Virus record (IMG/VR): IMGVR_UViG_2718217859_000002
Source: a virus
Lineage: Duplodnaviria > Heunggongvirae > Uroviricota > Caudoviricetes
DNA: 26,681 nucleotides
Direction: 5' to 3' (one strand)
The notes below the pieces were generated by a model, which saw only the letters and a program-made list of their open reading frames with translations, had not been told where the DNA came from and did no database searches. Both the position numbers and the translations under genes were made by a program. Below, piece by piece: positions 1 through 26,681 of this stretch (position 1 is the stretch's first letter; every line of letters begins with the position of its first letter).

Positions 1-621
1 ATGAAAATCCCTTTTAAGTCACCGGCCTTTAATGAGGAGGCATTCAATTGTCCGTTTTGCATGGCATATGCTCAACAGGATTGGTCTGGGTTGAGAGATA
101 AGTACGGAGCACTTAAAGAAGTTTCTCTTTCTAAATGCCGCAATTGCAGCCGGATTGCATATTGGTATGACAAGCGAATGATTGTCCCTCAAGCGAGTGG
201 GATTGAGCCTCCTAATACAGATATGCCTGCTGATTGTGTTGCCGATTACATGGAAGCAAGAAATATTTTCAATCTTTCACCTAAAGGTTCTGCTGCAATC
301 CTTCGTCTTTGCTTACAAAAATTGATGGTGCATCTCGGTTTAGAGGGAGACAAGATCAATGACGATATTGCAACTTTAGTTCAAAAAGGTTTGCCAGAAG
401 AGATTCAACAAGCGTTGGATATCTGTCGTGTTGTGGGTAATAACGCGGTGCATCCTGGTGAAATAAACATTGATGACTCTCCGGAAATTGCAGCTTCACT
501 TTTTGGATTGATAAATTTGATTGTTGAAGAAAGAATCACACGACCACAGAAAGTAGCGAAAATGTACGCGAATCTTCCCGCGGGAGCTAAAGCCGCTATC
601 GAAAGGAGAGATGCCAAATAA
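1..621 (+). CDS. Zn-ribbon plus DUF4145-like domain protein (206 aa)
   Basis: ORF from ATG at window position 1 (upstream not visible, could extend). N-terminal CxxC...CxxC; C-terminal region with [14 protein letters not shown] motif resembling DUF4145 as I recall it. Stop overlaps ATG of next ORF (TAATG). Confidence 0.55.
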
Positions 622-1045: not shown

Positions 1046-1261
1046 TTATTCTTTGGCGGAAGTGTCAAATGTCTTTGCATAAGGGCATTTCCCCTTAGTT
1101 ACGTAAGTGAACAGATAATTGCTGTTCTGATACGTGCACAGCGTTTTTCCATTCTCCGTCTGTTCTTCCTGTGGGTTGACCATTGTTATCTGTCCGGCAT
1201 TCGATAGGGCAGGCAATAGCGCCAACGTCAGAACAAATAAGCATTTAATTTGGATCACCAT
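1046..1261 (-). CDS. small secreted Cys-containing protein (71 aa)
   Basis: Hydrophobic N-terminus ending ALSNA/GQ (signal-peptide-like); ATG overlaps stop of the upstream recombinase ORF (ATGGTGA). Confidence 0.4.
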   Translation of the reverse strand: MVIQIKCLFVLTLALLPALSNAGQITMVNPQEEQTENGKTLCTYQNSNYLFTYVTKGKCPYAKTFDTSAKE

Positions 1262-1833
1262 TCTAAAGAAAACTCCTCTGCTAAATCATCCTGCACATCC
1301 TGACCATACCCGATGTAATACATAGTAGAGCGCGGGTCTGTCTGTCCCAGGAAATGGGCTATTGTCTCTATAGCTACCCCTGCATCAAACATCACACGGC
1401 CCCGACTTTTACGTGGCGTATGGCATCCCACATTAGAGAATCCGGCTCTACGTCCCATTTTCCCAAATTCAGTGAATACCGTGTTACGGGTTACGGCTTC
1501 GCCTTTACTGCGTAATGTGCCAGCACTGAAAATAAAATCTGTAGCTACAGGCATCTTCGTTTGCTCTGCCTTGCGTTGTGCCACCACTGACAACATGGCG
1601 GGGGTAACTTTTGGCCTTACTACGTTTCCGGTTTTCTCCTGCTTTATCTTCAAATGAGATTGCCCCTCAACATCCTGATATTTTAGCTTGAGTACGTCAG
1701 AGACACGCAACCCGCTTTCATACATAAACACCCATAAGCAATAAAACAGGTTGGTTTTACTATTGCGCTGTAGCTCTGCTGCTACTGTTTTTACCTCGTC
1801 TACATTCTTGAGGGCTTGGCTAATACCTTTCAT
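1255..1833 (-). CDS. small tyrosine recombinase (phage integrase fold, about 192 aa)
   Basis: C-terminal catalytic-like residues (GLRVSD, CHTPRKSRG, STMYYIGY). ATG at 1833 has an AAGGAG SD 9 nt upstream; the longer ORF to 1929 lacks one. Confidence 0.6.
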   Translation of the reverse strand: MKGISQALKNVDEVKTVAAELQRNSKTNLFYCLWVFMYESGLRVSDVLKLKYQDVEGQSHLKIKQEKTGNVVRPKVTPAMLSVVAQRKAEQTKMPVATDFIFSAGTLRSKGEAVTRNTVFTEFGKMGRRAGFSNVGCHTPRKSRGRVMFDAGVAIETIAHFLGQTDPRSTMYYIGYGQDVQDDLAEEFSLEW

Positions 1834-1930
1834 CTTTATACTCTCCTTATTCGTTTCAATGAAAGTAGTTTTGATCATAAAACGATCATTTTCAATATGT
1901 TGCACGATACGTTTTATGGTTGAGAGCACT

Positions 1931-2017
1931 AAATGATCAAAAATGATTAAAGGGCTATTAAAAGGTGATTAAGACTGATTAAAAGGTATTAAAGGCGATT
2001 AAAACCGATTTAATTTA
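1931..2017. repeat. iteron-like array, about 7 copies of [G/T]ATTAAA(A)GG at 10-11 bp spacing
   Basis: Direct reading: tgattaaaggg, tattaaaagg, tgattaagac, tgattaaaagg, tattaaagg, cgattaaaacc, gatttaattt. Confidence 0.6.
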
Positions 2018-2243
2018 GGTGCGTCCGTCACCATCGTTGAACACAAAGATCAAGCCTCCCGATCTGATGCAGGCACAAATATGAAATATCTTATTGATTT
2101 ATAAGTAAATTTATTTTATTTAAGCTGTTCACAAATGATTTGTCTTGTCAAGAAATTTATTTTCGGCAGATGAAAAATAGCCAATAAATAGCGATAAATG
2201 GTCTATATATGCCTGAGTATATAAAGATCAGTAGGTTACAGAA

Positions 2244-2262
2244 TACACTTTGCTAAAGTGTA
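2244..2262. promoter_or_regulatory. perfect 8-bp-arm palindrome TACACTTT-gct-AAAGTGTA (operator-like)
   Basis: Inverted repeat read directly. Confidence 0.4.
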
Positions 2263-2647
2263 TCGAATCTGGGTTGTATTGCATTATAAGTGATAATAAT
2301 TCTTATTATTGAATTGTATGACAAATGATTATTCTCTTTGAGATGTGCACGAGTGAACATTCGTTCAACAAATGATAGAACGTTTATTGAGCAACAATTT
2401 TGCAGTGATGCGCTATATGCCGCATTACATAAGGCTTTGCTGATGATAATGTAAAAGTGAAGAAAGTAAGAATTGCACTTTGAATCTACCTTTCATTGCA
2501 TTTTTTAGTAGGGAATTACACGGAATAAGCTATGAATATTCTATGATTTACACGAGATATTCTTGCTGTTTAATTTCGGCTTTGGAGATCAGGCATTCGC
2601 AAGAATACGCTAATGCGTTGCCTGAAAAGCCATTGCACATAATAGAG

Positions 2648-2971
2648 GTGAGCGTATAGCGAACTATCAATGTGATCATTGCACGAATGATAATGAGTGG
2701 ATATAGATTCTATATATCGTTAGATTGTAGTTTGATAGTTAATGTGTAATGTAGATTGTATGAGCGTATAGCGAATGTTAGTTAGATCAACAACAAACTA
2801 ACCTTTAAATCTCTTTTATCTTCTCATAGATATGGCTATGCGTAGCAACCGAAGGTTAGCCATTAATCTATGCAGCCGTAAGGCTGTTTTGCATGTAATA
2901 GTTGTTTGTTGTTGGTAGTCGTTAGACAGTTACCAATTTATAGATCAGAGATAGATGTGAGCGTATAGCGA
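2648..2971. repeat. three dispersed copies of GAGCGTATAGCGA (2648-2662, 2761-2774, 2957-2971)
   Basis: Exact 13-14 nt direct repeats in an ORF-free AT-rich region. Confidence 0.6.
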
Positions 2972-3065
2972 TACACTAATCATAACAATATCTTCTTACT
3001 TTTTAGTTAGTTAGTTGTTAGTAGGTTATTGTTATGCGCGCTATTAGCGCATGTATAAAGGTATC

Positions 3066-3296
3066 ATTTTTATCTAAAGGGCTTTAGACATTTTTGATAC
3101 CTTTTTCATCTCTAAAAAAGTGTAATTTTTATCTAAAGGGGCTTTAGACATTTTTTACACCTTTTTCTGTGCAAGACACTTACCAGTGTGCACAATACTT
3201 ATGCTTTTCTAAAGCCGGGAATTTTTAAGTTTGATTGATCAATTGTTAACTTTAAAAGTTACTTTTAACAATCACTTAGACGATCTAAAGCCGCAA
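3066..3296. promoter_or_regulatory. operator cluster: two 40-bp direct repeats each with palindrome TCTAAAG(G)GGCTTTAGA (3073-3088, 3132-3148) plus TCTAAAG half-sites near 3208 and 3286
   Basis: Read directly; lies upstream of the plus-strand operon starting at 3520. Confidence 0.55.
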
Positions 3297-3437
3297 TTAA
3301 CATAATATAAGTTGACATGCAAGCACTTTTTACCATATAGTGCGGCCCCCTATCTATAAATCACACATTTTACCACTTGTCAATACCATAAATAACCTTA
3401 TAAAACAGGTGCTTAGTTTAGTATTGATAAATATTTA

Positions 3438-3466
3438 TTGACTAATACTATAAGATGGTGTATATT
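3438..3466 (+). promoter_or_regulatory. sigma70-like promoter TTGACT-N17-TATATT
   Basis: Hexamers at 3438-3443 and 3461-3466, about 55 nt upstream of the 3520 start; AGGAGG SD at 3507-3512. Confidence 0.45.
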
Positions 3467-3519
3467 AGCATTAGGGAATTGCATTCCGTAGTAACCAACA
3501 ACAACCAGGAGGTAAATAA

Positions 3520-3750
3520 TTGCGATGGTTTGACACTGAGCAAGTCTACATTGCCCTGAAATGTGGGGAAGTGAAACGCCACACAATAGCCAGCAATATG
3601 GGGCAATGCGTTACCCGTGGAGACGAGAAGCGTGCAAAGATGTTTCGTGATGCTCTTACACGGTATGACAGAGAACGCGCGATCATTGATGCGCAGAATG
3701 TGCCAGGGCGTAAGAAACGTGCTGGACGTAAATCACAATTAATCAACTAA
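3520..3750 (+). CDS. hypothetical basic protein (76 aa), TTG start
   Basis: AGGAGG 7 nt upstream of TTG; basic C-terminus (RKKRAGRK). Confidence 0.45.
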   Translation: MRWFDTEQVYIALKCGEVKRHTIASNMGQCVTRGDEKRAKMFRDALTRYDRERAIIDAQNVPGRKKRAGRKSQLIN

Positions 3751-3770: not shown

Positions 3771-3932
3771 ATGGATATTCGATTCAATCCAGAAGTATTT
3801 GCAGAATTACGCACGATGGCAACACAACGAGGTATTAGTATTCCCGCGTTAGTTAACGTCATACTTAAAGAAAAAATCATCCTACATCAAGAGGAAAAAT
3901 ATGATAAAGACGATCAAACGAAAAATAGTTAA
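3771..3932 (+). CDS. ribbon-helix-helix (Arc/CopG-like) DNA-binding protein (53 aa)
   Basis: Below ORF-track size cutoff; translated by hand: MDIRFNPEVFAELRTMATQRGISIPALVNVILKEKI... fits a strand-helix-turn-helix pattern. AAGGTG SD upstream. 3' end overlaps next gene in another frame. Confidence 0.4.
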   Translation: MDIRFNPEVFAELRTMATQRGISIPALVNVILKEKIILHQEEKYDKDDQTKNS

Positions 3933-5385
3933 TAGCATTAATCCCGTTTACCTTGTAGATTCAATTTGCGGCTCAGGAAAGAGTCACCGCCTTATAGAAT
4001 ATATACTCGGCCTTCAAGATTCATCTGAAGCTATCCCGCAACGTGTTCTAATAGCCGTTCCTACGCATGAATTAGCCACAGAGACGCGTAATAAGATGTT
4101 AGACGCGGGAATACATGGTTATCATGTTAAAGTCGATAGCGGGGCTGTTTTAGCCCTTAAACAAACACTATCAGAATCCTTTGATTATCCGGTCGTTATT
4201 ACCACGCATCAGGCACTACAGGTTTTTTGTGAGAGAGCAACCTTTGATAGTGAGATGCAAAAACTCCTGTATCCCTTTCAAGTTTTCATTGATGAGATTC
4301 CGGCAGCTTGGCACGGCGATCACGCTACAGTTTTACATAGTGACTCTGTAACGGATAACTTCCCGTTTATGCAGTGGATGGAAGAGAGAGACGGATTATT
4401 ATTCCTTAAGTCTGACAATGAGAACGACCTTTACAAGTATTACCATGAACGCCACGCCGGATCGGATAGCCTGAAAGCGGTTATCTATGCTGTGCTGAAC
4501 GGTAGCGGCTTGCTTTATGGGGAAACAGATAAAGGGTACAGCTTCTTTGCGCAGACAGCTAACCCTGTGATCAATTGTGCAATGTGGTCTGAACGTCTAA
4601 CCATTATGGGGGCGGGTGTTAGCCGATCTGAATGGCGTTATGTAGCTGAGAACGTGGCTAAGGTGGAATGTATGCCAGCTCCTGATCATCTACTACCGGA
4701 CAACGACCGCAGAGAACATAAGAACACGCCTGTTAAACTGGTATCTGTGCTAAAGCCAGGAGTAAGAGCGACGCTTACGCAATTACAGGAAGTTTTTAAC
4801 AACCATCTACAGACGATTGCCCTTACTATGGGAAGTCGGTTTATCTTTGCAACGAACAACGACAAAGGGATCTGTAACTTCAAGACTATTGCACTCGATA
4901 GCCTGGAGGATAACGGGAAAGGAAAAGCGGTAAGCATGGCAAGCTACGGGCTGAACGTATACCAGAGCTACCACGCCGCCGCTTTCCTGGGGTGTGCTAA
5001 CCTCAATGCTACAGATAACAACCGATGGGCGCAATGGCTTAATTTCTCCGGTTATGACGCTGAGGCGGTGTTACGCCTTAAGGTTGAAGCAATGACCTAT
5101 GAGCGTTGCTACCAGTTTATAAGCCGCACAAGCATTCGTGATAGTTCCTGCAAAGAGGCTTTAACGTTTATCGTGCCTGATACGCAGTGTGCTGAATATA
5201 TCAAGCGTTGGTATCTTCCACAGGCTGAGATCACAACGTTAGGCATCGAGAAGGAAAGGAAGAAAGAGAAGGGCGCTAATACAAAGGCAGCTATTCAGGA
5301 ACTGAAAGCTAAAGGCATGAAGCAAAAAGCTGTAGCAGAGGCGTTAGGCTTAGGGATTGCAACGGTTAAACGTAACTGGAAATGA
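3901..5385 (+). CDS. P-loop NTPase, helicase-like (replication-associated?) with C-terminal HTH (494 aa)
   Basis: Walker A CGSGKSH near N-terminus, PTHELA (helicase motif Ia-like), TTHQAL, Walker B VFIDEIP; C-terminal KAVAEALGLGIATVKRN HTH. GAGGA SD upstream. Function inferred from motifs only. Confidence 0.55.
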   Translation: MIKTIKRKIVNSINPVYLVDSICGSGKSHRLIEYILGLQDSSEAIPQRVLIAVPTHELATETRNKMLDAGIHGYHVKVDSGAVLALKQTLSESFDYPVVITTHQALQVFCERATFDSEMQKLLYPFQVFIDEIPAAWHGDHATVLHSDSVTDNFPFMQWMEERDGLLFLKSDNENDLYKYYHERHAGSDSLKAVIYAVLNGSGLLYGETDKGYSFFAQTANPVINCAMWSERLTIMGAGVSRSEWRYVAENVAKVECMPAPDHLLPDNDRREHKNTPVKLVSVLKPGVRATLTQLQEVFNNHLQTIALTMGSRFIFATNNDKGICNFKTIALDSLEDNGKGKAVSMASYGLNVYQSYHAAAFLGCANLNATDNNRWAQWLNFSGYDAEAVLRLKVEAMTYERCYQFISRTSIRDSSCKEALTFIVPDTQCAEYIKRWYLPQAEITTLGIEKERKKEKGANTKAAIQELKAKGMKQKAVAEALGLGIATVKRNWK

Positions 5386-6998: not shown

Positions 6999-7306
6999 TG
7001 AGCACTACACACAACGTAACTATTCAGATGATGGATCTGATTATTTCTTTACAGAAGGCAGTTAATTCGGCTCTGACGTTTCCAACTGAGCTAACCATTG
7101 CACAGGCTGTTATTAACCTGGAATCGACGCGGGAAGCACTTGAACTACTTATTGCAGCGTGCGAACAATCCGAAGGTGCACAGGTTGAAGCTGACGAATT
7201 GTCTAATCTGATCATCGTTATTCATGACACCACTGAAATCATGAAAGAAGCGGTAGCAGACCTGCAACCACTCATTAATGAACTAATCGACAAGGCTAAC
7301 AACTAA
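6998..7306 (+). CDS. hypothetical acidic protein (102 aa)
   Basis: ATAATG overlap coupling with upstream ORF. Confidence 0.45.
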   Translation: MSTTHNVTIQMMDLIISLQKAVNSALTFPTELTIAQAVINLESTREALELLIAACEQSEGAQVEADELSNLIIVIHDTTEIMKEAVADLQPLINELIDKANN

Positions 7307-7515
7307 TGACAAAAACTAAACGTGTGCGCCTTCTGGCGCTCACAGAAGAAGGGAAAGCGGGTAATTGTTTCACAGTAGGTAAAGTGTATACCGGCTTACT
7401 CGACACTTACACCCGCCTGATGCACGTAACCGATGATAACGGTAACGATCAAACAATCGTTTTAGATGGTAATTGCGTATTTGGTGAATGGGAACTGACA
7501 ACCGAAAAGAATTGA
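7306..7515 (+). CDS. hypothetical protein (69 aa)
   Basis: TAATG overlap coupling. Confidence 0.45.
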   Translation: MTKTKRVRLLALTEEGKAGNCFTVGKVYTGLLDTYTRLMHVTDDNGNDQTIVLDGNCVFGEWELTTEKN

Positions 7516-7534: not shown

Positions 7535-7563
7535 TTGACTTTATAACAGAAATGTTATATAAT
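7535..7563 (+). promoter_or_regulatory. near-consensus sigma70 promoter TTGACT-N17-TATAAT
   Basis: Hexamers at 7535-7540 and 7558-7563 with a 17-nt spacer. Confidence 0.5.
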
Positions 7564-7569
7564 AAGAAG

Positions 7570-7810
7570 TGTAGGGGAAAGAATCTAAAACAGGTGTTAG
7601 CTGGCGTTAATCCTTCTCCCGATTTTAATCCTACACGAAAGCGGGGTAGACCTCAAGGGGTCGCGCCCTATCTAACCTGCCTCGCTTTCCCTTTACCAGT
7701 TTTTTTAGAAATTGTTTCCCTCGTTAATAGTTTCATATATTTTCCTTATTGCTTTATCAAAATTGTGTCTTAAGAATGCAGGGGCTACGGATTTGGCCCC
7801 TCATCTTTTT
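7570..7810 (+). ncRNA. candidate small non-coding RNA (promoter to terminator, no convincing ORF or SD)
   Basis: Predicted start about 7570; GC stem pairing 7634-7645 with 7681-7691 followed by a T run near 7700; second terminator at 7781-7810. Confidence 0.3.
7781..7810 (+). terminator. rho-independent terminator
   Basis: GGGGC-loop-GCCCC followed by TCATCTTTTT. Confidence 0.55.
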
Positions 7811-8382: not shown

Positions 8383-8598
8383 ATGCAAAATCTCATTCTA
8401 AAGAATGGTAATGAAGAATTGATTATCACTAATGAAGCATTCAACGCTACGGCTTATATGTTGGGAATCACTCCCACAGAATTGAAAAAACATTGTGATA
8501 AGCTTTTTAAGTCTGCTGATGAACAGAAACCTACTATGCAGGATCTGATTAAAGCAAAAGCAGAACAAATCAAACAATCCAAAAAAGGAAACAATTAA
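8383..8598 (+). CDS. hypothetical small protein (71 aa)
   Basis: AAGGTAAAG SD upstream; first gene of structural cluster. Confidence 0.45.
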   Translation: MQNLILKNGNEELIITNEAFNATAYMLGITPTELKKHCDKLFKSADEQKPTMQDLIKAKAEQIKQSKKGNN

Positions 8599-8601
8599 TT
8601 T

Positions 8602-8973
8602 ATGGCTATTATTAATATGAGCGATCTGTTTCCAGTTCGCAAATCATTTACCGATATCGTTTCATATGCAACTGATGAGTTCGGTTGTGTGCAATCTTTT
8701 ACCGTTGATCTGGCGGTTGATGTTGAATGTGGCGATCTGATTACCAGTGACGGCGCTGAATATGTAAGCGGCGGCGATGTTCTTGTCGTTGTGTCTGATG
8801 CGGTATCCGCTGGCGACGCTAAAACCGTTAACGTGCTGCGTAGCAATGCCGGACTGGTTTGCATCAAATCCGATGCTCTGAATGTTGAAGGCGCTGTGAA
8901 AGAAGCCGCTATTGCTGCCCTGGCTGCAAAAGGTTTCCAGATGGCTGGCTTTAATACTGTATTCACATCTTAA
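8602..8973 (+). CDS. putative head decoration-like / minor virion protein (123 aa)
   Basis: Beta-rich V/D/A/G/S composition; sits immediately upstream of the capsid-like gene (decoration-then-capsid order as in lambda D-E). Homology not verified. Confidence 0.4.
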   Translation: MAIINMSDLFPVRKSFTDIVSYATDEFGCVQSFTVDLAVDVECGDLITSDGAEYVSGGDVLVVVSDAVSAGDAKTVNVLRSNAGLVCIKSDALNVEGAVKEAAIAALAAKGFQMAGFNTVFTS

Positions 8974-10170: not shown

Positions 10171-10362
10171 ATGAACACACAAAACAACAATCCCGTTGAA
10201 ATCTTGAAAGCTGTTTCCACCTTACCGGAAGATATTCTGAATATCTCTCAAGTATGCAAGTTTTTAGGGATCTCTAATACCGCTGTACGTCAAAGAATCT
10301 TTGCTACTGGCTGTTCCGCTATGGAAGCAGTGCAATATTACGTAGCAAAACAAAATAAGTAA
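10171..10362 (+). CDS. small HTH DNA-binding protein (63 aa)
   Basis: ISQVCKFLGISNTAVRQRIF helix-turn-helix pattern. Confidence 0.45.
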   Translation: MNTQNNNPVEILKAVSTLPEDILNISQVCKFLGISNTAVRQRIFATGCSAMEAVQYYVAKQNK

Positions 10363-10380: not shown

Positions 10381-12222
10381 ATGGATCTGAATATCTCAAC
10401 CTTAACAAACAAGGTTGTATTTAAGGTGGATTTTGCATCATTACAGAAAGCACGCGATGCAGGTAAGAAATTCCAGAAAGAAATGGAAAACCTAACCAAT
10501 CCAACATTGAAAGGGAAGAAGGCTAAACGAGCTATAGACGATGCTAACGATCTGGTAAAAGCCCGTAAAGCTACACAGGCTAAAGCTGATGCCAAAGCGT
10601 CAGACAAGCAAGCTCAAACCGATAAGAAGAACGCTGATAAGGTGGCAAAGGCAGAAGCTAAAGCGAAGGCTAAAGCCGCTATAGCTGCCGATAAACAGAT
10701 CCGCGCTAAAGCAACGATAGCAGAGAAGGCAGAGATTAAACGCCAGCAAGCTTTTAGACAGCTTGAAGGCATCAAGAAAGGGCGTATGGGTGACGGTATG
10801 GACTCCGCCCAATACTACAAAACATTACAATACATCAAACAACAAACGGCAGCTTACGAGAAAGGCGCTATTAGTCAGGCTAAGATGAATCACCTGATCC
10901 GTGATCGCATCACGTTAGAACGCCGTGCGGCTGCTGTTAAAGCTCGCCAGGTGGCGGCTGATGGCGGTAAATATCCACATATGGCTAAACAGCTTAAAGG
11001 TGGTCATATAGGCGGTGGTGTAGGTGCAATGGTGGGCGGTGCTGCTCTCACTGCTGCTACTCTCGGCGGTGCTGCGATATTCAATACCGTAACCGATCAG
11101 GCAAGCAAGATCACAGACACTAACCGCAAGGCAAAAGCTGTTAACGTCAACACTAACGCCCTGTTAGCACTCAACCAGTACGGCTTAGAGCACGGGGTAG
11201 ATAGTTCCGTTGATCAACGTCAAGATAACCTTAAAGACGTTCAAGAACGTTTAGGCGAGACGATAGGGAATACTAAGTGGGATGCTAAAAAGGGTCGCTG
11301 GGCGGGGGGTAACGGTGCCGTTGATAACATCCTTAACAAATATGGTTGGAGTCCTGAACAGGTTAAAGGTTTCCAAACTGATCCATTAGGTTTCCTGGGT
11401 GCTGTAGTGAAAGAAGGCGAACGCCGTGGACTCTCTGACCAGGAGCAGGGTCACATGCTCGAAGACCTTGGAAATGATTTACAATATTTCCGTGGGGCTT
11501 TCAGTCGTAACGGTGAAGAGTTAAATAAAACTCTCGTTAAGATGCAACAAGCCAACGCCACCTATACACAAGCGGATCTTGACGCTGCTGAACGTCTGCA
11601 AGCTGTACAGGCTAATATGAATATGGCCTGGGAAGGTAGTAAGAAAGCTATCATGACGGGATTCGGTGAAGAGTTCGACGCTCAAGCTGGTGAAGAGTGG
11701 GCGCAAATGTTGAAAGATCTCAATCCTCTGTTTAAAGAACTTGGAAGCTCAACGGCTGAAATGATGAGTGCCTTTGCTGGTGCTGTATCGTGGCTTACTG
11801 CTGCATACCAGAATATAAATCCAGAGAACAAACATGAAAACCTTGATTCGTCCGGTATGTATTATAAGGACTCGTTTGTAGGTGGTATGGTTGATTGGGG
11901 TCGTAGTGCTTTAGGCTTATCGCCTATCCCTGGCACGGAAGACAAGCCAACAACTGGCGGAACTGCAATTCAGAACTATGCAAGCCCGTCCGAGAACGTG
12001 CAATCCCTGAAACAGAACGTTAGCCGTGATCTGAACACTACCCCATCTATGACGTATGCGCCAAGCATTGTCGTAAACGTGCCAGAAAGTAAGGTTGATG
12101 TGAATATCGCCCCTGATGGCTCTCAGCTTGGATCATACCTCGACTACAAAGTGGGAAGTATCCAACAAGATTTTGAACGTAGTTTCACGTTGGCGGCTCT
12201 GTCTGGGCAAGCACCAAGTTAA
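10381..12222 (+). CDS. large coiled-coil protein with Gly-rich hydrophobic segment (613 aa), tape-measure/pilot-like
   Basis: K/A/E-rich N-terminal coiled coil; GGHIGGGVGAMVGGAALTAATLGGAAIF segment; AAGGAAAA SD. Confidence 0.55.
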   Translation: MDLNISTLTNKVVFKVDFASLQKARDAGKKFQKEMENLTNPTLKGKKAKRAIDDANDLVKARKATQAKADAKASDKQAQTDKKNADKVAKAEAKAKAKAAIAADKQIRAKATIAEKAEIKRQQAFRQLEGIKKGRMGDGMDSAQYYKTLQYIKQQTAAYEKGAISQAKMNHLIRDRITLERRAAAVKARQVAADGGKYPHMAKQLKGGHIGGGVGAMVGGAALTAATLGGAAIFNTVTDQASKITDTNRKAKAVNVNTNALLALNQYGLEHGVDSSVDQRQDNLKDVQERLGETIGNTKWDAKKGRWAGGNGAVDNILNKYGWSPEQVKGFQTDPLGFLGAVVKEGERRGLSDQEQGHMLEDLGNDLQYFRGAFSRNGEELNKTLVKMQQANATYTQADLDAAERLQAVQANMNMAWEGSKKAIMTGFGEEFDAQAGEEWAQMLKDLNPLFKELGSSTAEMMSAFAGAVSWLTAAYQNINPENKHENLDSSGMYYKDSFVGGMVDWGRSALGLSPIPGTEDKPTTGGTAIQNYASPSENVQSLKQNVSRDLNTTPSMTYAPSIVVNVPESKVDVNIAPDGSQLGSYLDYKVGSIQQDFERSFTLAALSGQAPS

Positions 12223-13635: not shown

Positions 13636-13657
13636 TCGATTCCCTTCGCCCGCTCCA
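13636..13657 (+). other. att core: 22-nt fragment matching the 3' end of tRNA-Gly(CCC) (TCGATTCCCTTCGCCCGCTCCA)
   Basis: Ends in CCA; acceptor 3' strand CGCCCGC pairs with the GCGGGCG 5' end of tRNA-Gly; matches my recollection of E. coli glyU. No 5' tRNA body present. Confidence 0.6.
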
Positions 13658-13821
13658 AACAAACATTTCTCAACGTCTACTAAAGTCCATCAAACCCACG
13701 AATATCAAGCCTTCCAGGCATTTTCATAGTTTATTAACGTCTACTCACAACTACCAGAATCTACACACAGAAGTGTATAGTAATGCGTATAGGACAAAAT
13801 TTATTTTTTGGAGCTATACAC

Positions 13822-15036
13822 ATGCTGCTTTCAGACCTTGCCATCAGGCGCGCGAAGCCGAAAGAAAAGGCTTATACACTCAATGACGGTAACGGGCTTT
13901 CGTTGCTCATTGAGCCGAACGGTTCGAAAGGGTGGCGACTGCGCTACAGGTTTGCAGGAAAGCCCAAAATGTTGTCGTTGGGTGTGTACCCTGATGTGTC
14001 TCTGTCTGATGCCAGGGCGGCAAGGGATGAGGCTAAAAGGCTTCTTGCTGGTGGTATAAATCCAAGTGAGGCCAGAAAAGCCCAAAAGCGAGAACAGGCG
14101 AGCAAATTTGGCAATACTTTTGAGGGTATTGCTCGCGAATGGTACGAAAAGCGGATCGACAGGTGGTCATCGTCATACGCCGAGGAAATGATCGAGACGT
14201 TTGAAAAAGATGTTTTTCCGTACATTGGCGGTAGGCCGATCGCAGAAATTAAGCCGATGGAATTGCTGGCGGTTCTTTCCCGTCTTAATGACCGTGGTGC
14301 GACTGAAAAATTGCGTAAGGTTCGCCAGCGATGCGGCGAGGTGTTCCGGTACGCAATCATCACCGGACGCGCCGAATATAATCCAGCCCCTGACCTGGTG
14401 AGCGCATTTGCTCCACATAAAAAAGAGCATTACGCCTATTTGAAGGCCGACGAACTGCCGGAATTTTTCCGCGTTTTTAATACGTACACCGGAAGCCAGA
14501 TCGTCAAACTGGCAATGCGGCTATTAATTCTGACAGGTGTCAGACCCGGGGAATTACGGCAGGCAGAATGGCAGGAGATCGATTTTGATAATCGTTTGTG
14601 GGAAGTGCCTAAAGAACGAATGAAGATGCGCCGTCCGCATTGTGTGCCATTACCAGAACAGGCGATAAAAATACTGGAGCAGTTAAAAAACATGACAGGC
14701 CAGTATCAGTTTATTTTCCCCGGTCGTATTCACCACAGTAAGCCAATGAGTGAAATGGCGATGAATGTGCTCATTCGTCGTATCGGCTATGCCGGGCGCG
14801 TTACTGGTCATGGATTCCGGCACACCATGAGCACCATTTTGCATGAGCAGGGCTATAACACCGCGTGGATAGAGACGCAGCTCGCACACGTCGATAAAAA
14901 CTCAATTCGTGGCACATACAACCATGCGCAATATCTGGATGGTCGCCGGGAGATGCTCCAGTGGTATGCCGACTATATGGATTCGCTCGAGCATGGCGGA
15001 AATGTGGTGCATGGTGAGTTCGGAAAATGCGGGTGA
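13822..15036 (+). CDS. int: P4-type tyrosine integrase of element 2 (405 aa)
   Basis: N-terminal LSDLAIRRAKPKEKAYTLNDGNGLSLLIEPNGSKGWRLRYRF arm-binding domain typical of P4/CP4-57-type integrases; C-terminal HGFRHT...Y; GGAG SD. Track ORF begins earlier at 13783 without SD. Confidence 0.9.
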   Translation: MLLSDLAIRRAKPKEKAYTLNDGNGLSLLIEPNGSKGWRLRYRFAGKPKMLSLGVYPDVSLSDARAARDEAKRLLAGGINPSEARKAQKREQASKFGNTFEGIAREWYEKRIDRWSSSYAEEMIETFEKDVFPYIGGRPIAEIKPMELLAVLSRLNDRGATEKLRKVRQRCGEVFRYAIITGRAEYNPAPDLVSAFAPHKKEHYAYLKADELPEFFRVFNTYTGSQIVKLAMRLLILTGVRPGELRQAEWQEIDFDNRLWEVPKERMKMRRPHCVPLPEQAIKILEQLKNMTGQYQFIFPGRIHHSKPMSEMAMNVLIRRIGYAGRVTGHGFRHTMSTILHEQGYNTAWIETQLAHVDKNSIRGTYNHAQYLDGRREMLQWYADYMDSLEHGGNVVHGEFGKCG

Positions 15037-15134
15037 CTGGTTGAGTATACAGTAGTAGACTTTGAGCACCTAAAAAGGCTGATGCAAACAGAGCTGGATC
15101 GGCCTTAACATTAGACCGCTTGAAGGGGGAGAAT

Positions 15135-15848
15135 ATGCCAATTGTGGAAAACATTCCTGACTTATCCCACTGGCGAACAGTACAGGAGTTTTCTATCACC
15201 CAGGCCGCTTTATTGTTGGCCGGAATTGATCCTTATGATTACCCTACTCTTGAACATGTCAGAGATAATAAACATGAACGTTGGAAAATGGCATGGGGGT
15301 TGGCTAATGGAATGGTAACAGCCATCCGTCGTGGTGTCTTAACTCCTGTTGAATGTACCTCTGAAATAGTTGAGTACGATAATTGGGGAAATGTTTGTGA
15401 TATTGAGTACAAACGTCTGACATCAGCGCAACTGACCGATCGTGCATATGAGATAAGCAAGGATAAAACTTTAATTAGTCGCCATTCTTTATATGAGTGG
15501 ATAAAAAATGAGAGCGTTGATTTTGCGAGATGCCCTCGCCCTATACCTGTTAAGGAAGTTAATCCGCCAGCAATCATTGAATCATCTCATCAGGTAATTA
15601 ATCCTGACGAGTATTTGTGTACTTATGGGCATAAGAGTGATGGGTTGGAGTATGTGCAGGATGCTATAAGGGAACTATGGTCGACGTATGACCCAGATGA
15701 CCCACAGACGGCTCCGACAGAGCATGAGGTACTTGAATATTTGAAAAAAAGGGGGGCGGGTTCTAATGTTGCTAGGGCTGTGAATCTGATTTTAAGGCCT
15801 GAACATCTGAAGCGTATTGGTAGAAGACCAAAAAAAACAAAAAGTTAA
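15135..15848 (+). CDS. hypothetical cargo protein (238 aa) in integrase-proximal variable region
   Basis: AT-richer than flanking genes; GGGGGAG SD; no recognisable motifs. Confidence 0.55.
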   Translation: MPIVENIPDLSHWRTVQEFSITQAALLLAGIDPYDYPTLEHVRDNKHERWKMAWGLANGMVTAIRRGVLTPVECTSEIVEYDNWGNVCDIEYKRLTSAQLTDRAYEISKDKTLISRHSLYEWIKNESVDFARCPRPIPVKEVNPPAIIESSHQVINPDEYLCTYGHKSDGLEYVQDAIRELWSTYDPDDPQTAPTEHEVLEYLKKRGAGSNVARAVNLILRPEHLKRIGRRPKKTKS

Positions 15849-16107
15849 ATAGTGGTCGCTATTCCAGAAAAATGGTGGTTTCCTTTCAAAAAAAAGTAAC
15901 CACCAATGCAGATTAAATCGTAAGAACAGTAATTTTTCTTCGTGTTTCACGTCAGCATGATACTTAAAATAGTAAACGCCATTATTAAAAAAAGGTGGAG
16001 CTATTTCACTGAAATGGTATTCGCCATTCATAATGGTAAGCATCTATAAATATCACTTTTCTTAATGCAAGCTATGTACACCTTTATAGACGTTACAAGG
16101 TGAATAT

Positions 16108-16305
16108 ATGGCAAACTCTCTTATTCGTTTAACGGAAGTTCAGCGTAGAACTGGATATAGCAAGGCATGGATTTATCGCCTTATGGGGCAAGGTAAATTT
16201 CCTGCATCAGTTAAAATTGGCTCGCGAGCTATTGCTTTCGTTGAGAGTGAAATTGACGAGTGGATTAATCAGCGTATTGCGGAATCACGCGGAACAGCTA
16301 CCTGA
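16108..16305 (+). CDS. alpA: AlpA-family phage regulatory protein (65 aa)
   Basis: LTEVQRRTGYSKAWIYRLMGQGKFP...ESEIDEWI matches the AlpA HTH signature; AAGGTG SD. Confidence 0.85.
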   Translation: MANSLIRLTEVQRRTGYSKAWIYRLMGQGKFPASVKIGSRAIAFVESEIDEWINQRIAESRGTAT

Positions 16306-16382
16306 TTAAATGGCTACGGGGCTATTGCCCCCAGCTATCCACCAGCAAATAAAAGTAACTTAATTCGATAGCAGGAGTTTTT

Positions 16383-17231
16383 ATGAAATTTCCAAAAACG
16401 CCCGTACAGGGGCAGGGCTTCGTTCGGCCTGAAAACCAGAATCTGCAAAATTTCGGCGATATTATCCCGGTTATTTCCGGTGTTATTGGCGGGCGTGAAA
16501 CCAATATTGTTAGCGCCAGAGCGTTGCATAAGGCGCTGGGTGTGAAGCGTGATTTCACAACCTGGATTAAAGGACGCATTGATGAGTACGGATTTAAAAA
16601 TGGCGTGGATTTTGAAGTTGTAGAAAATTTGTACTTTGATTCCCCGAAACGGGGGAACCAAAGTGTAAATATTGAACAGTTTGATTCTGATTGGACAACA
16701 AAGCGCGGCGGTGATCGTCGCAGTGAAGAGTATTTGATCTCCACGAACATGGCGAAAGAACTGGCGATGGTCGAACGCACCGAACAGGGCCGCGCCGTTC
16801 GTCAGTACTTCATCAAATGCGAGGAGGAGCTACACAAGGTAGCGCCAGTGCGTTCCGCAGCGTTACGCAGGGAACTGAAAGCCCGTATCACCGTTGCCAG
16901 CTACTTTAAGCCGATGTGCGCCGCGCTGGAGGCGTACCGGGCTGAACTGGGTAAAAACACACTCCAGCACCACTACACCACGGAAGCCAATATGCTGGCG
17001 CGTATCGTGCTGGGTGGCATGACTGCAAAACAGTGGGCGCAGGCGAACGGCATCACAGGCGAACCACGCGACCACATGAGCACGTTGCAGCTTGAGCACC
17101 TTTCTTACCTTGAGCAGAGCAATATCACGCTGATTGAGTTAGGCCAGGACTACCACCAGCGGAAGGCTGAATTAATTCGTCTTTCGCAGCGTTGGTTAGC
17201 CCGTCGCATGGAGGAAAACAGCCATGTGTAA
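16383..17231 (+). CDS. phage antirepressor-like protein (282 aa)
   Basis: Motif-level resemblance to AntA/KilA-C type antirepressors; AGGAG SD. Confidence 0.5.
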   Translation: MKFPKTPVQGQGFVRPENQNLQNFGDIIPVISGVIGGRETNIVSARALHKALGVKRDFTTWIKGRIDEYGFKNGVDFEVVENLYFDSPKRGNQSVNIEQFDSDWTTKRGGDRRSEEYLISTNMAKELAMVERTEQGRAVRQYFIKCEEELHKVAPVRSAALRRELKARITVASYFKPMCAALEAYRAELGKNTLQHHYTTEANMLARIVLGGMTAKQWAQANGITGEPRDHMSTLQLEHLSYLEQSNITLIELGQDYHQRKAELIRLSQRWLARRMEENSHV

Positions 17232-17618
17232 CGCTCTGACCGTTACAAAAAGAGAAAGCGCCCCGTTGCCGGAGCGCCTTTGTGAACGAATTACCTACAG
17301 CACCGCGATGTTTGCTATGTGGGTGAATTTTAGCGACAAGTTCGTTCAATGTGAAGGCACTGATCACCGTTACTACAGCACGCCAGAAATGCAGAATATT
17401 TTGCTGCAAAATGCCGTTGGCCACGCTGTCCGGAAAGCAAAAAATTTTGCTGGTGGCGCGACTGATGCGATTTTGTCAGGTCGCCAGGTGCTGATCAATC
17501 TGATGTCTGATTTCGTTCTGGATAAAACAAAGGCGACCGCAGAGAGCCGCCAGTGGAAAAGCTACATACTTGAACGCATCACCAACAATGCCACATTTGC
17601 GGCTGGTGGGCAATGTGA

Positions 17619-26490: not shown

Positions 26491-26501
26491 AGGTGTAAAT
26501 C

Positions 26502-26681
26502 ATGACCATCACCGAAGCCGATATGCTGGAGATGATCCGCAGCATTGCCGAAATCAAACAACCAGCAAGCAAAATTAACAGGTGTTCAGCGCCTGTTTCC
26601 GTTGTGCTGCAACAGGAACGCCACCAGCAGGATGATGTGAGGCCGTATCAGTGGAAGAAACCGGACAGGCCGCGACGGTGA
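26502..26681 (+). CDS. hypothetical small protein (59 aa), ends at window edge
   Basis: AAGGTG SD upstream of ATG; hand-translated; stop TGA is the last codon of the window. Confidence 0.35.
   Translation: MTITEADMLEMIRSIAEIKQPASKINRCSAPVSVVLQQERHQQDDVRPYQWKKPDRPRR

Follow-up and report, generated by a model that had tools for sequence, protein, structure and literature searches.

A homologue of the phage phi92 tail tape measure protein on a capsid-encoding, satellite-like island of Escherichia coli

The DNA analyzed here, which we call the window, is a stretch of 26,681 nucleotides from IMG/VR record IMGVR_UViG_2718217859_000002 that contains most of an island integrated in the E. coli chromosome and measuring 14,283 bp between its att repeats. 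Our subject is the 613-aa product of one open reading frame (ORF) of this island, a homologue of the tail tape measure protein (TMP) gp134 of phage phi92 (see Table 1 for all coordinates). The ORF runs from an ATG, with an AAGGA Shine-Dalgarno-like motif 7 nt on its 5' side, to a stop codon. Residues 46-135 of the protein are rich in Ala (28%) and Lys (23%), and residues 206-236 in Gly (32%) and Ala (23%), the latter including the Gly-rich string GGHIGGGVGAMVGGAALTAATLGGAAIF; the sole strongly hydrophobic segment, residues 217-230 (19-residue Kyte-Doolittle mean >1.0), lies within this Gly/Ala stretch. An AlphaFold2 model based on an alignment of 26 sequences is nearly all helix with a mean predicted local distance difference test (pLDDT) score of 49, and its confident part is limited to residues ~245-400 (pLDDT 79-91). 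When this model was compared with the PDB using Foldseek, the best E-value was not below 0.69, so that the model adds nothing beyond sequence homology. A first-pass annotation of this DNA had described the product as a Gly-rich coiled-coil protein, which fits both the composition and the helical model; its suggestion of examining the protein by structure prediction bore out the helical character but, given the low confidence and the lack of a fold match in the PDB, went no further.

While Pfam, NCBIfam and PADLOC gave no match for the 613-aa protein, its residues 215-611 match PHROG 16051 ("tail length tape measure protein") at E=1.4e-65, and a sequence search of the PDB returned Phi92_gp134 (21vq_V; 659 aa) at E=1.2e-48 over query residues 66-611. 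The N-termini align as well (query residues 2-40 with gp134 residues 3-41), and at the C-terminal end the alignment reaches gp134 residue 655. Cryo-electron microscopy (cryo-EM) of phi92 identified gp134 as a trimeric tape measure and resolved its residues 631-656 inside the baseplate (PMC13450770). A tblastn search of phage records gave 134 matching records, every one of them below 60% identity to the island protein; by organism name, 107 of the 134 are Escherichia and 8 Klebsiella, next to a few with other host labels, and no Vibrio appears among the organism names listed (three names fell outside the listing). The phages listed have genomes of ~130-160 kb and are of the phi92/phAPEC8 type (Stephanstirmvirinae), and the order of genes around their TMP homologue is constant: sheath, tube, chaperone, TMP, tube initiator and hub. 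The family is small, with 39 representatives recovered at E≤1e-30 among 1.84 billion in an exhaustive profile search. Weaker profile matches were presumed tape measures of 700-2100 aa in which only region ~200-470 is common, which fits the core domain expected to be shared by tape measures of differing length. The hallmarks of TMPs (a mostly helical fold, a single hydrophobic peak and a conserved hub-type C-terminus) are all present in the 613-aa protein. By sequence and architecture it therefore belongs to the phi92-type TMP family, though not by genomic context, for its gene lies between a 63-aa helix-turn-helix-like ORF and the integrase gene and not in the slot between chaperone and tube initiator that TMP genes occupy in phage tail operons.

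Aligned with phi92 gp134 and other TMPs of PHROG 16051, the island protein has the same parts in the same order, from the N-terminal segment over the ruler, the one Gly/Ala-rich hydrophobic segment and the core domain to the S-G-Q tail, at an overall identity of ~30% to Stephanstirmvirinae TMPs. N10, F14, A24, K33 and P41 do not vary among the island and phage TMPs, and the N-terminal 45 residues may contact either the head-proximal parts of the tail or the chaperone. Most of the invariant columns of this alignment fall into the central domain; close to the C-terminus, F598, L604, S608, G609 and Q610 are invariant as well. The island protein is 27-49 residues shorter and lacks some helical segments of the ruler, where the phage TMPs carry extra stretches of 13 aa after residue 81, 24 aa after residue 173 and 16 aa after residue 188; the counterpart of its hydrophobic peak lies at residues 255-267 in the phage TMP. 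Across the family, island TMPs have 609-635 aa, and the TMPs they were compared with 646-662 aa (with the lengths of sequences L001, L008 and L019 as annotated); those confirmed as phage-encoded have 659-662 aa, and the 646-aa protein (P0015) was classed as phage-type from the alignment alone.

Seven E. coli alleles of the gene each comprise exactly 613 codons and show no indels. Their pairwise ratios of nonsynonymous to synonymous substitution rates (dN/dS) are 0.04-0.11 at dS of 0.2-0.4, and these low values are uniform over the N-terminus, the ruler, the core and the C-terminus. The ORF is thus, judging from these ratios, the absence of indels and the full-length homologues in many genomes, not a chance ORF, and by the same measure the TMP gene is selectively maintained. 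Island TMPs form one clade that is separate from phage TMPs and deeply branched internally, a topology that argues for a long residence of the TMP gene in island elements.

The boundaries of the island follow from a 22-nt repeat that corresponds to the 3' end of a tRNA-Gly gene and occurs once in the window, where none would be expected by chance. In E. coli locus L002, which comes from a strain with this island only, the repeat is found twice at a distance of 14,283 bp, and its left copy forms the end of the tRNA-Gly gene. From this spacing, the island begins ~600 bp before window position 1 (attL) and ends at position 13657. Among the island ORFs, searches of Pfam, PHROG and NCBIfam revealed no sheath, tube, chaperone, hub, portal or terminase gene.

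Full-length homologues of the TMP at 24-39% identity are encoded in the chromosomes of Klebsiella pneumoniae, K. quasipneumoniae, Pluralibacter, Kluyvera, Citrobacter and Enterobacter, and there are further homologues at other E. coli chromosomal sites. The compact architecture of the island recurs in at least six genera at differing chromosomal sites, with att sites, integrase and replication genes intact. A local tblastn survey yielded 10 phage contigs, each with a complete portal-to-spike operon, and 14 island loci in which the TMP gene is accompanied by island-type neighbors (small module ORFs) and sometimes by a tube-initiator gene. Most of these 14 loci have a recognizable capsid gene of the island type, replication genes or integrase, and none of them contains sheath, tube, chaperone, hub, spike, portal, terminase or neck genes homologous to those of the phages; a chaperone homologue was found in no family member examined. 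The TMP type of the window occurs in 63 of 5,426 complete E. coli genomes. The capsid gene of the family is present in ~380-395 of them (~7%), always on the chromosome and in up to three copies per genome. TMP types diverge down to 24-39% identity, compared with 50-79% for the capsid proteins. A virome scan with a single sequence found nothing.

One relative, L006 (Logan contig SRR16178778_1816), is circular at ~14.25 kb with a 30-nt terminal overlap and is possibly an excised or replicating form. The proteins of its replication module are ~90-97% identical to those of the island in the window (94% for the helicase), while its TMP is only 36% identical, a tube-initiator gene is present, and no similarity of its capsid gene to the island capsid or to any capsid in the PDB could be detected. 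This combination of the same replication module with a different capsid, TMP and tube-initiator module points to modular exchange. L006 contains the small recombinase and lacks the large integrase.

The first-pass annotation had noted a capsid-like gene ahead of the 613-aa ORF, the absence of accompanying tail genes and a satellite context. The first of these observations is confirmed by a Pfam match, the second by the lack of tube, sheath, chaperone and baseplate-hub homologues in the island and the 14 related loci, and the third agrees with the gene content and att boundaries of the island. Among the roles it had offered for the protein, that of a tape measure is borne out by full-length homology to a TMP that cryo-EM showed to be trimeric, and no clear homology to a non-virion protein family emerged from our searches. 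Its other proposals (an external scaffold, a determinant of capsid size or a satellite-capsid ejection protein) find no support, as the homology to a tail protein spans from the N-terminus to the C-terminal hub-plug motif.

Several further features link the island to phi92-like phages. The island capsid protein gives full-length matches to phi92 gp124 (PDB 21uy_N, E=1.2e-7) and to the capsid of Pakpunavirus P7-1 (9zbi_A, E=2.3e-11), and it is 24% identical end to end to the major head protein of phage anhysbys. Two small island ORFs have counterparts in the same phage, with 45% identity to gp057 (ORF 7306-7515, + strand; PHROG 27862) and 37% identity to gp209 (ORF 1046-1261, - strand). The tube-initiator ("Dit-like") gene that many relatives carry directly 3' of the TMP gene matches phi92 gp135 (PDB 21vq_N, E=1e-70), and its product is 56-66% identical to the phage copy. 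Escherichia and Klebsiella lead both the phage matches and the island copies. Subgroups of the phages themselves share 84% identity in the tube and 69% in the hub but only 33% in the TMP, which makes it plausible that a TMP could be compatible with a helper at ~30% identity. At the DNA level, short matches between island and phages were marginal (best 26 nt, E=0.026), and no shared pac or cos site was therefore identified. In the spacers of the phage structural regions, a comparison for helper late promoters showed promoters of the ordinary sigma-70 type without any special motif that recurs.

Table 1. Features of the island, with positions counted from the first nucleotide of the window
Feature	Position	Strand	Basis
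PD-T7-4 anti-phage defense gene (DUF4145), cargo at the tRNA-proximal end	1..621	+	PADLOC E=6.3e-90; Pfam DUF4145
Short tyrosine recombinase, ~190-224 aa, catalytic domain only	1255-1929	-	Kept across the family (189-205 aa in L006, L007, L008)
DEAD-like helicase, 494 aa, presumed replication protein	3901..5385	+	Sub-threshold Pfam DEAD; PHROG 2467 E=3.5e-35
Conserved 71-aa ORF that opens the structural module	8383..8598	+	Kept in relatives; no family match
123-aa protein, analogous in position to the phage decoration (cement) protein	8602..8973	+	Family-conserved; size and position like the phage gene
Island major capsid protein, 342 aa	8992..10020	+	Pfam Phage_cap_E E=7e-11
63-aa protein between capsid and TMP genes, helix-turn-helix-like	10171..10362	+	Position and sequence conserved across the family
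613-aa homologue of phi92 gp134-type TMPs	10381..12222, stop codon included	+	ORF translation; PHROG 16051; PDB 21vq_V
TMP residues 1-45, conserved N-terminal segment	10381..10515	+	39% identity to phage anhysbys TMP
TMP residues 46-205, Ala/Lys-rich helical ruler	10516..10995	+	Poorly conserved, 16-24% identity to phage TMP; predicted long helices
TMP residues 206-236, Gly/Ala-rich hydrophobic segment, putative membrane insertion	10996..11088	+	Composition; hydrophobic peak 217-230
TMP residues 237-470, conserved central core domain	11089..11790	+	39-48% identity to phage TMP over 237-380
TMP residues 561-613, C-terminal tail ending in invariant S-G-Q motif	12061..12219	+	Counterpart of the baseplate-resolved gp134 segment
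Island tyrosine integrase, 406 aa	12330..13550	-	Pfam Phage_integrase and DUF6538; PHROG 1; kept in terminal position in related islands
attR, 22-nt copy of the tRNA-Gly 3' end (TCGATTCCCTTCGCCCGCTCCA)	13636..13657	+	Perfect direct repeat in E. coli locus L002

The small genes of the structural module allow for few assignments. The 123-aa protein and the phage decoration protein both end in VFTS, and homology between the two is unproven at an hhalign probability of 1% and without a sequence match in the PDB. Neither the 63-aa nor the 71-aa ORF has a match in Pfam, PHROG, NCBIfam or PADLOC. A helix-turn-helix-like motif (L..LgIs...VRqRif.tG) gives the 63-aa ORF the look of a DNA-binding protein that could be a packaging-specificity or regulatory protein; it is recognizable neither as a tail chaperone, having no similarity to that of the phage, nor as a counterpart of Rta (see below). 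Additional small ORFs accompany the helicase gene between an AT-rich stretch and the structural module. The window contains no tRNA, and an Rfam scan of it gave no known RNA.

A few observations concern the noncoding parts of the island and its surroundings. The AT-rich stretch, which spans ~1.6 kb (1930-3520, GC 0.34), is poor in ORFs and adjoins the short recombinase gene; in an E. coli relative it contains repeats of 28-32 nt at a spacing of 59-60 nt (~3050-3170 in window coordinates) and could represent an iteron-containing origin or an invertible or regulatory region. Upstream of the structural module lies a near-consensus sigma-70 promoter (TTGACT-17-TATAAT, 7535-7563), followed after ~215 nt by a terminator-like hairpin (7780-7801) in a stretch left unannotated in RefSeq. 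An ORF at 7552-7773 that overlaps this promoter-hairpin stretch (7535-7801, + strand) is 73% conserved in L006. The layout of promoter and hairpin resembles a lambda-type late operon under antitermination, or a small RNA. A commoner E. coli version of the island is found at a different chromosomal site near pao/ykg genes (loci L038 and L039); its TMP of 609 aa is 24-30% identical to other island TMPs, its tube-initiator homologue of 237 aa is labeled "phage baseplate protein" in RefSeq, and the copy in L038 carries insertions of IS3 and IS1414. In the window, a second and unrelated PICI-like element (13658-26681) is inserted in tandem at the tRNA-Gly end that forms attR of the island, with its far end beyond the window. 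It encodes a P4-type integrase (13783-15036), an Ant-like anti-repressor, a repressor, a primase (19278-21050), a head-protease-like gene and a TerS/excisionase-like gene as well as a 345-aa gene (24625-25662) with a match to the PHROG called "baseplate hub". Loci in other E. coli strains, which do not have the first island at that position, are 100% identical to the element.

We favor the interpretation, at a probability of roughly 60%, that the 613-aa protein is a functional TMP of a satellite-like island that has its own capsid protein and would obtain the other virion parts from a large virulent myophage of the phi92/phAPEC8 group (Stephanstirmvirinae). Upon infection by such a helper, a trimer of the island TMP would replace the helper's TMP at the baseplate hub, with the C-terminal S-G-Q tail plugging into the complex of helper hub and tube initiator. 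Tube and sheath subunits of the helper would then polymerize around the helical ruler of the island TMP, which would in this way become incorporated into the tail and set its length, until its N-terminus meets the tail-terminating parts of the helper for capping. Because island TMPs lack helical segments of the phage TMPs (~27-49 residues), the resulting chimeric contractile tail is predicted to be ~5-7 nm shorter, equivalent to 1-2 of the 24 tube rings of phi92. When the chimeric particle infects a new cell, the TMP would be the first to exit the tube, and its Gly/Ala-rich hydrophobic segment may help to form a conduit for the DNA of the island. The benefit to the island might lie in escape from interference or defense systems that target the TMP, or in independence from the helper for the step that initiates tails.

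A number of points weigh against this interpretation. Tails join heads independently, so that a TMP of its own would not obviously benefit the satellite only, and the same objection applies to the PLE satellites of Vibrio cholerae that we compare below. No packaging function, be it a small terminase subunit or a pac or cos site, was recognized in the island; nor does it encode a tail assembly chaperone, the adjacent 63-aa ORF being more reminiscent of a DNA-binding protein, and the island of the window is without the tube-initiator gene that many relatives have. The structure prediction has low confidence (mean pLDDT 49) and produced no significant fold match. Identity to the candidate helpers is low for the TMP (~30%) as well as for the capsid (~24%), and the true helper may therefore be unsampled. 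Finally, an alignment-based virome scan gave prophage-style predictions in IMG/VR that derive from isolate genomes as well as phage contigs, and no sign of packaging.

Among other explanations, the one that we take most seriously, while considering it unlikely, is that the protein serves as an interference decoy, i.e., a dominant-negative TMP that co-assembles or competes at the hub and spoils the tails of the helper, mainly to the benefit of the host population. The conserved N- and C-terminal interface regions would be needed by such a poison subunit, too, and it would fit with the TMP gene having no accompanying chaperone gene and with the island carrying PD-T7-4 as defense cargo; moreover, mobile elements are known to block tail assembly, as exemplified by Tai systems and by Rta of PLE11, which targets the helper TMP. 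Yet a mere poison would have no need for the ruler and the hydrophobic segment, which are under the same strong purifying selection as the rest of the protein. The TMP gene is also always paired with the island capsid gene, and often with the tube-initiator homologue; the constant pairing with a capsid gene implies the production of particles, which need working tails. The only tested precedent, in addition, has the satellite TMP as a functional component of the virion. Decoy and structural roles are compatible with each other and could coexist.

Far less probable is a function at the capsid, as an external scaffold, a size determinant or an internal ejection (pilot) protein. The position of the gene after the capsid gene and the absence of other tail genes would be in line with such a role, and it would have parallels in the satellite proteins Sid of P4 and TcaP of PLEs, which are scaffolds that determine capsid size. 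But the 613-aa protein is homologous end to end to a protein that cryo-EM located in the tail lumen and baseplate, it retains the C-terminal hub-plug motif, and in many relatives its gene is followed by that of a tail-core protein, the tube-initiator homologue. No similarity to scaffold families was detected in Pfam, PHROG, NCBIfam or the PDB. We regard as least probable of all that capsid and TMP genes are functionless leftovers of a degraded phi92-like prophage, even though structural genes from a phage that stand alone in a chromosome may call such a remnant to mind and some copies do appear damaged, with one E. coli TMP gene split by IS3 and a few copies annotated as two ORFs. Against decay stand the perfectly kept frame of 613 codons with its low dN/dS at dS of up to 0.4 and the intact, compact architecture across at least six genera, and against a prophage origin that related phages have genomes of ~150 kb and that no integrase is annotated among the 286 features of phage anhysbys. 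The low dN/dS together with the separate deep clade of island TMPs therefore exclude a decaying prophage remnant for practical purposes.

The island could be a member of an undescribed satellite family of Enterobacteriaceae, widespread in Klebsiella, that parasitizes large virulent phi92/phAPEC8-type myophages with its own capsid and tail core (the TMP with or without the tube initiator) and in which the chimeric-tail strategy would have arisen a second time, independently, a broader proposal that we put forward tentatively and at slightly less than even odds. Before 2026, satellites were thought to use the tails of their helpers unaltered, and PLEs are the sole exception shown experimentally. 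An independent enterobacterial family would make substitution of the tail core a general strategy of satellites, and the stronger divergence of TMPs than of capsid proteins would then record an arms race centered on the tape measure. It would also provide a tractable system in E. coli and Klebsiella, with a helper structure already solved for phi92, for studying how a baseplate accepts a foreign tape measure and why this pays. Against encapsulated E. coli and Klebsiella, phi92/phAPEC8-like phages are candidate therapeutic agents, and resident islands that hijack or sabotage such phages while carrying defense genes like PD-T7-4 could affect the outcome of treatment and spread genes.

We found no description of this island family or of any Stephanstirmvirinae satellite in a literature search that covered few subscription-journal papers. 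The island was compared with known groups of satellites. P4-like satellites are characterized by psu, sid, delta, the alpha primase and cos. None of the island ORFs has a PHROG, Pfam or NCBIfam match to these hallmarks, and the replication protein of the island is a DEAD-like helicase, so that an assignment to this group was rejected. The island resembles cf-PICIs, which are likewise integrative islands of Enterobacteria of ~15 kb, in having its own capsid protein and in its presumed use of helper tails. However, cf-PICIs are defined by genes for capsid, protease, portal, head-tail connectors, HNH, TerS and TerL, of which the island has the capsid gene only, and it is not a cf-PICI because the others are missing. 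EPIPs, satellites of mycobacteria described in a preprint, are reported to carry a TMP gene and to have tails of altered length; compared by description, they differ from the island by their actinobacterial hosts, a siphovirus prophage as helper, a serine integrase, the presence of TerS and head-tail adaptors and tails that are longer (PMC12822802).

The closest parallel by description is with the PLEs of V. cholerae, for which incorporation of the TMP, shortening of the tail and the need for the TMP in transfer were demonstrated (Nature 2026, PMC12987554), all of which would be expected for the island by analogy. The PLE TMP shares 20% identity with its counterpart in the virulent myophage ICP1, and western blot, mass spectrometry and transmission electron microscopy showed that PLE virions contain the PLE TMP instead of ICP1's, with tails that are 10 nm shorter for 95 fewer TMP residues (PMC12987554). 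Deletion of the PLE tmp gene cuts transduction by 96-99.9%; PLEs also encode a chaperone and, in some cases only, the hub protein BhuB, and the authors reported predicted tmp genes in other satellites while stating that the benefit is unknown (PMC12987554). The island differs from PLEs in having its own major capsid protein, where PLEs reuse that of ICP1, in its tyrosine integrase at tRNA-Gly, in the lack of a recognizable tail chaperone or Rta counterpart, and in its host group, element family and presumed helper. What the two have in common is a small integrative element without most tail genes that encodes a shorter TMP of low identity to that of a large virulent myophage, together with a second tail-core gene in some members only (BhuB in PLEs and the tube initiator in the island family) and TMP types that are highly divergent within each family.

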